Shown here piece by piece: positions 57,093 to 57,181 of a stretch of DNA of 64,000 bases (its first letter is position 1; each line of letters opens with the position of its first letter). The translations under genes were made by a program, and so were the position numbers. The stretch comes from Escherichia coli (GTDB taxonomy: Bacteria > Pseudomonadota > Gammaproteobacteria > Enterobacterales > Enterobacteriaceae): NCBI RefSeq assembly GCF_045037415.1, contig NZ_CP173438.1; one strand, given 5' to 3'. Below the pieces are notes generated by a model. That model saw nothing but the letters and a program-made list of their open reading frames with translations. It had not been told where the DNA came from and made no database searches.

Positions 57093-57181
57093 CTCTTTTC
57101 CCGGTGGAGTCGCCGTAAATGGTACTCCGCCTGGTATTTCTGAACATCATCGAGTCATTTACACACTCGCCATTCTGGTTA

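Follow-up and report, generated by a model that had tools for sequence, protein, structure and literature searches.

The yidE–yidL junction

The window, a contiguous stretch of 64,000 nucleotides from an Escherichia coli genome (contig NZ_CP173438.1), carries yidE and yidL in convergent orientation, with the yidE stop at 57092, the yidL stop at 57182 and a spacer of only 89 bp (57093–57181) between them. These positions had been given by the original prediction, and they agree with the open reading frame listing and with the RefSeq annotation of an identical junction in strain AVS0935, where yidE and yidL are also annotated 89 bp apart. The features of the junction and its neighbors are as follows:

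55407–57092, plus strand: yidE, putative transporter of the AspT/YidE/YbjL family (open reading frame; NCBIfam NF003007, YidE-type transporter, 988 bits; annotated as yidE in identical genomes; RefSeq start at window position 55431)
57093–57135, minus strand: proximal yidP relic, the last ~14 codons of yidP (41 of 43 bases as in K-12 yidP, 2 mismatches)
57100–57134, plus strand: stable hairpin CC.GGTGGAGT.GCC / GGT ACTCCGCC.GG, beginning 8 nt past the yidE stop and inherited from the yidP coding sequence
57135–57136, no strand: site of a secondary 10-bp deletion, at which ATTCGCTGGC of intact yidP was lost between the imperfect direct repeats CTGGTATT and CTGGCATT
57136–57182, minus strand: distal, decayed yidP relic, about codons 206–221, inside the UTRA domain (35 of 47 bases, 74%, as in K-12 yidP)
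57183–57187, no strand: deletion junction TACCT (the blastn alignment to the intact O157 allele runs up to 57182 on the left and resumes at 57188 on the right)
57182–58078, minus strand: yidL, AraC-family regulator with a truncated C-terminus (open reading frame; NCBIfam profile match; 57182–58048 in RefSeq)
58215–59930, plus strand: yidK, solute:sodium symporter, the unchanged right-hand neighbor (NCBIfam NF007790, 856 bits; synteny)

The spacer holds no credible gene. Two short open reading frames of 33 and 30 amino acids overlap it, and the longer one is a frameshifted remnant of the yidP C-terminus. Positions 39001–64000 of the window are 100% identical over 25 kb to O25b:H4-ST131 genomes, for example EC958 and JJ2434, and the source is therefore an E. 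coli of phylogroup B2. An assembly artefact was ruled out, as 1,137 of the 5,426 complete E. coli genomes searched contain the junction without a break.

In K-12, the same chromosomal locus has the order yidE, yidP, glvCB, glvG, yidL; yidP (717 bp, minus strand) overlaps the yidE stop by 4 bp, and glvG overlaps the yidL stop by 4 bp. The original prediction had given this order for K-12, and the K-12 genome confirms it, as yidE and yidL are not directly adjacent there. The suspected absence of yidP-glvCBG from the window was likewise borne out: nothing of the segment is left except an 89-bp yidP remnant, whereas K-12 keeps 3.4 kb of the operon.

A relic of yidP fills the spacer

The entire spacer aligns to the 3′ end of yidP from K-12, O157, E. 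albertii and six further genera, the alignment partners including yidP of Citrobacter braakii, C. amalonaticus, Klebsiella oxytoca, Kluyvera intermedia, Pseudocitrobacter and Kosakonia. The spacer is thus a relic of the yidP 3′ end, comprising the last ~33 codons (about 206–238). In a blastn comparison with the intact O157:H7 allele (locus L083, 2901–3100), window positions 56993–57182 matched with 87% identity and a single 10-bp gap. This loss breaks the yidP reading frame: the remnant begins MMFRN and then runs out of frame, while the K-12 frame ends in VMFRNASEYQVEYHLRRLHPEKS and its stop. With its flanking imperfect direct repeats, the 10-bp loss carries what would be the signature of replication slippage.

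The decay is uneven, with mismatches to K-12 yidP at 12 of 47 distal and 2 of 43 proximal bases. Identity at 35 of 47 distal positions would arise by chance with a binomial probability of about 4e-10. YidP is a GntR+UTRA regulator in which the Pfam UTRA domain spans residues 87–224 of 238, and the relic therefore includes real domain sequence. Homology to a gene that is intact in relatives, the position and orientation seen in outgroups, and signs of decay all mark the spacer as a pseudogene relic.

The right breakpoint and the YidL tail

From 57188 onwards, the window matches the intact O157:H7 allele from L083 position 6977 with 96% identity. The right breakpoint thus lies inside yidL, and a C-terminal tail of about 10–11 residues was removed. 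The new stop codon, TAA on the minus strand (57182–57184), straddles the last relic base and the 5-nt junction, and YidL now ends in VLKNTDR, whereas the K-12 and O157 proteins end in VLKNTDQHPTDASPHN. The long tail (D[QR]HP.DA..) is kept in C. braakii, K. oxytoca and Kluyvera, and because it is conserved across these genera, the short tail of the window is the derived form. The deletion also gives a structural reason for the two YidL C-termini that annotation pipelines report. In strain AZ 187 (NZ_CP184102.1), which otherwise carries the allele of the window, an IS1 copy lies in yidL.

The lost operon

Relative to the intact allele, about 3.87 kb (L083 ~3101–6971) plus the 10 bp are gone; the distance from the yidE stop to a GTCCG anchor is 95 bp in the window versus 3,976 bp in O157. 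A single old deletion of ~3.87 kb would account for this arrangement. It would have taken the 5′ ~620 bp of yidP, the divergent yidP/glvC promoter region, glvCB, glvG and the end of yidL, and would have created the new yidL stop codon at the junction. The remaining ~33 codons of yidP would then have decayed through the 10-bp slippage deletion and 12 substitutions in the distal 47 bp.

In the intact O157 allele, the annotation shows yidP, a PTS IIBC component and a 6-phospho-alpha-glucosidase, and nothing else. yidP encodes a GntR/HutC-type regulator, GlvCB scores 959 bits against TIGR02005, the model for alpha-glucoside-specific PTS IIBC proteins, and the glvG product, a family 4 enzyme, is annotated as a 6-phospho-alpha-glucosidase. 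The deleted genes belong to the same families as those of intact alpha-glucoside PTS/6-phospho-alpha-glucosidase loci such as the O157:H7 allele, and the window encodes none of them. Comparable alpha-glucoside systems are aglB-aglA of Klebsiella and glvA-glvR-glvC of Bacillus subtilis. The strains with the scar, B2 lineages including ST131 and O78:H4-type strains, are thus predicted from gene content to lack this alpha-glucoside PTS/6-phospho-alpha-glucosidase route, and they would be unable to take up and hydrolyze its alpha-glucosides.

The intact allele also contains a perfect 34-bp palindrome, AGAGATCTACTTTTTCG/CGAAAAAGTAGATCTCT, at L083 3830–3863 between the divergent yidP and glvCB. It is likely an operator for the GntR-type regulator, and it is deleted in the window.

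The cryptic glvCBG operon of K-12 was described in PTS genome surveys of the 1990s. It is already decaying: glvCB is a pseudogene interrupted by an internal stop, and glvG is a pseudogene that is frameshifted and has lost 508 bp.

Deletion of a native operon rather than ancestral absence

The original prediction had left it to an alignment to distinguish deletion from ancestral absence, and the outcome is deletion: the spacer aligns to the yidP 3′ end, and outgroup genera keep the order yidE-yidP-glvCB-glvG-yidL. For the outgroups, 80 loci from species other than E. coli were surveyed by tblastn, none of them from E. fergusonii, E. marmotae or E. ruysiae. In most genera sampled, yidP-glvCB-glvG lies directly downstream of yidE in the same orientation, for example in Klebsiella, Kluyvera, Kosakonia, Enterobacter, Lelliottia, Raoultella, Cedecea, Buttiauxella, Pseudocitrobacter, Dryocola and Citrobacter braakii/amalonaticus, and in many of the operon-bearing genera, yidL-yidK follows glvG. 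In E. albertii, yidP adjoins yidE, and the contig ends there.

The alternative is that yidE and yidL were originally adjacent and that an ancestor of K-12, O157 and similar strains received yidP-glvCBG as an accessory cassette. Such an arrangement does occur: in Citrobacter youngae, C. werkmanii, C. sedlakii, Salmonella arizonae, Trabulsiella and Pluralibacter, the two genes are direct neighbors, and no yidP relic is evident between them. However, the spacer of the window is homologous to yidP coding sequence over its full length, including part of the UTRA domain, most sampled genera hold the operon at exactly this position and in this orientation, mobility genes are lacking from the segment, whose GC content is native, and the YidL tail region that overlaps glvG is conserved across genera. 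We therefore consider an ancestral absence extremely improbable. The yidE–yidL adjacencies in other genera have separate histories, and at least one is an independent deletion. In Enterobacteriaceae bacterium RIT714, yidE adjoins yidL, and the spacer holds a different short yidP relic.

The yidE–yidL spacers of C. youngae (L010), C. werkmanii (L013) and C. sedlakii (L016) contain, directly behind the yidE stop, REP-like GC-rich palindromes, for example GCCGGATAGCGC...GCGCTTATCCGGC. Two Superficieibacter loci (L075, L078) have two tandem yidP-glvCB-glvG sets downstream of yidE, and Citrobacter sp. 18056 (L028) carries an additional yidP paralogue, so the locus is able to grow and not only to shrink. 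Another locus, closely like that of Citrobacter sp. 18056, comes from an assembly titled "Chryseobacterium sp. 18061" (L022, CACSKA010000004.1) and shows the typical enterobacterial order ibpAB-yidE-yidP-glv-yidL-yidK; this assembly is probably mislabelled or contaminated.

The missing segment has a GC content of 0.50–0.53, like its flanks; no tRNA was found in it, and no integrase, transposase or IS element is annotated in the segment of the intact allele. A genomic island or an empty integration site was rejected on GC content, lack of a tRNA, annotation and lack of direct repeats across the breakpoints. Gene order conserved across the Enterobacteriaceae, normal GC content and lack of mobility genes together indicate that a native operon was lost and that the junction is not an empty insertion site. 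We therefore conclude, with a probability of roughly 0.9, that the spacer is the scar of one old deletion that removed a native alpha-glucoside PTS/6-phospho-alpha-glucosidase operon.

How the deletion arose

No direct or inverted repeats that join the breakpoints (about 3100 and about 6975) were found in the intact O157 allele, and the breakpoints are not flanked by long direct repeats; the original prediction had proposed to look for short ones in the spacer. There is also no recognizable microhomology at the breakpoints that could explain it, and later substitutions obscure any that existed. By default, illegitimate recombination without a long repeat would be the mechanism.

Three alleles in E. 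coli

The population sample consisted of 5,426 complete E. coli genomes; nearly all of them carry one of three alleles, and about 20 fit none:

Full deletion with the scar of the window: 1,136–1,137 genomes, about 21%
K-12-type 508-bp glvG deletion: about 2,600 genomes (by subtraction), about 48%
glvG stretch present (intact-type allele): 1,650 genomes, about 30%

The scar was counted with a 131-bp query spanning the junction, which matched 1,137 genomes (1,136 with a query coverage of 80% or more), and with a 1,089-bp query, which was contiguous in 1,137 genomes. Of the 5,426 genomes, 4,269 contain 80% or more of the yidP-glv segment of K-12. Scar carriers include S88, Nissle 1917, ATCC 25922 and ST131, and their assignment to B2 follows from these recognized strain names rather than from genome typing. 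A variant of the scar with two mismatches occurs in the O78:H4 APEC strain E12049 and similar strains, which we take to be ST117 of phylogroup G. The scar can be used as a presence/absence marker within this three-allele system, setting B2-type strains, ST131 among them, apart from most other E. coli.

The glvG stretch that is absent from K-12 is kept in O157:H7, O145, ST648, PCN033 and HS, among others. The K-12-type deletion is internal to glvG (508 bp; L083 6208–6732 compared with K-12, L001) and lies between the imperfect direct repeats ctGAACCACTttGGctGGTGG / caGAACCACTGGTGGtcgg, which read GAACCACT(TT)GG...GGTGG. In NEB5-alpha, an IS1 copy lies in glvC.

The original prediction had spoken of a strain-variable accessory segment and of a candidate indel hot spot. 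The variability between strains is real, but the segment is not an accessory insert, being a family-wide native operon with the GC content of its flanks and neither tRNA nor annotated mobility genes. "Hot spot" is appropriate only for the repeated decay of the operon: K-12-type strains lost 508 bp of glvG, IS1 insertions occur on rare occasions, and the operon was lost independently at least once in another genus. Foreign DNA was not observed at this position in E. coli. The variation at this locus is thus decay of a native operon and not traffic of foreign DNA. We would like to emphasize that the deletion is an ordinary one of a well-known kind: it is old, defines a lineage, has left a pseudogene relic and can be seen in more than 1,000 annotated genomes. 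Our literature search on glvCBG/yidP and phylogroup B2 found no paper describing this yidE–yidL polymorphism.

Age and spread of the scar

The scar resembles other lineage-specific gene-loss scars of enterobacteria in its decaying truncated remnant, its outgroup synteny and its fixation in a clonal group; the only unusual point is that an identical scar is common to several named Escherichia species or lineages. The same scar was found in E. whittamii, in Escherichia sp. E1V33 and in a divergent genome labelled "E. coli" E69. Seven deletion alleles were compared (the ST131 window, TUM17543, two of O78:H4 type, E. whittamii, E1V33 and E69), and all seven agree in both breakpoints and in the secondary loss of 10 bp; most of the 12 distal relic substitutions are also common to them. 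These shared characters argue for one event rather than recurrence, and the alignments point to a single ancient deletion in several Escherichia lineages. It could be supposed that the same junction arose separately in B2/O78:H4-type E. coli and in cryptic Escherichia because the site is prone to deletion, and the locus does lose DNA repeatedly, as the glvG deletion of K-12-type strains and the different yidP relic of RIT714 illustrate. With the breakpoints, the 10-bp deletion and most substitutions shared by all seven alleles, and with no repeat found that would direct recurrence, we regard independent deletions as very unlikely.

A single ancient deletion either would predate the diversification of E. 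coli or would have been passed from lineage to lineage by homologous recombination in the genes on either side. The junction reads TACCTGTCC in the E. coli copies (ST131, TUM17543, GPEC464, E12049) and TACTGGTTT or GGCTGGTTT in the other lineages, and the latter two are nearer to the intact TGCTGGTCC than is TACCTGTCC. In a sliding comparison of 6 kb of flanking sequence on each side, the window diverges from K-12 by about 2–8% and from E. whittamii by about 4–12%. Because the flanks resemble K-12 more than E. whittamii, they do not directly reveal a simple vertical descent of the entire region; either the polymorphism is ancient, or the allele has been transferred on short tracts by homologous recombination. 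Within these flanks, there is no long tract of low divergence shared with E. whittamii around the junction that would indicate introgression, and the window is nearer to K-12 throughout.

Within the relic itself, the distal 47 bases are identical between ST131 and E. whittamii (window 57136–57182, L003 9730–9776), whereas 9 of the 43 proximal bases differ (Fisher p = 0.0008, a post hoc comparison with very small numbers). This pattern could stem from gene conversion, in which intact E. coli alleles overwrote the proximal part, from a recent exchange of the deletion allele, or from constraint acting on the distal bases. Distal conservation is not universal, since E69 differs at 8 of 52 positions in this stretch.

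As a variant of the single-deletion explanation, the one event may have spread laterally, by homologous recombination through yidE and yidL, instead of vertically. The contrast between the identical distal and the divergent proximal bases, next to flanking genes with ordinary species-level divergence of 4–12%, would fit such a transfer. On the other side, the contrast is post hoc and counts few sites, E69 departs from it, gene conversion of the E. coli copy by intact alleles explains the proximal divergence equally well, and a long low-divergence tract around the junction is lacking. Lateral spread is thus possible but on the unlikely side. We are still more hesitant to propose a trans-species allele, whether by ancient polymorphism or by recombinational exchange, that links B2/O78:H4-type E. 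coli with E. whittamii, E1V33 and E69; this is a tentative suggestion that we think improbable as it stands. If it were true, the invariant distal 47 bp would mark a recent exchange or a new role as the 3′ region of yidL. One scar that spans named Escherichia species is in any case a modest observation that work on recombination or ancestral polymorphism within Escherichia can draw on.

A hairpin behind the yidE stop

The hairpin at 57100–57134 has a folding energy of −19.8 kcal/mol (z = −3.7; none of 200 shuffled sequences was as stable), and the corresponding sequences of K-12, E. whittamii and C. braakii fold into it as well. In an alignment of 51 sequences, 75% of cells are paired, and covariation is weak: only one pair (columns 56–72) shows multiple compensatory types (G:C, C:G, U:A), and it is confounded by coding constraint. 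A selected RNA structure was therefore not claimed. The stem is stable, but it is followed only by UGGUAUUUCUG, which is not a proper U-tract, and a consensus scan reported neither terminators nor promoters at the junction. In Rfam, a search of 56800–57500 at a permissive threshold gave only a chance match to SNORA50 (19 bits versus a gathering score of 90). The hairpin may end or stabilize the yidE transcript and may have been kept for this reason; this is only a suggestion, since the sequence is coding in intact strains, lacks a U-tract and fails the terminator scan.

Further indels nearby

The sulfatase-like gene yidJ (window 59927–61421) is frameshifted near codon 111/112, around 60260; K-12 YidJ aligns to it by tblastn in two separate frames, and the RefSeq annotation of the identical strain AVS0935 labels the gene "frameshifted". 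Next to it, yidI is absent, as a 48-bp yidJ–yidH spacer (61422–61469) replaces 592 bp of K-12 that contain yidI. This loss is a second small lineage-specific indel, 4 kb from the yidE–yidL scar.
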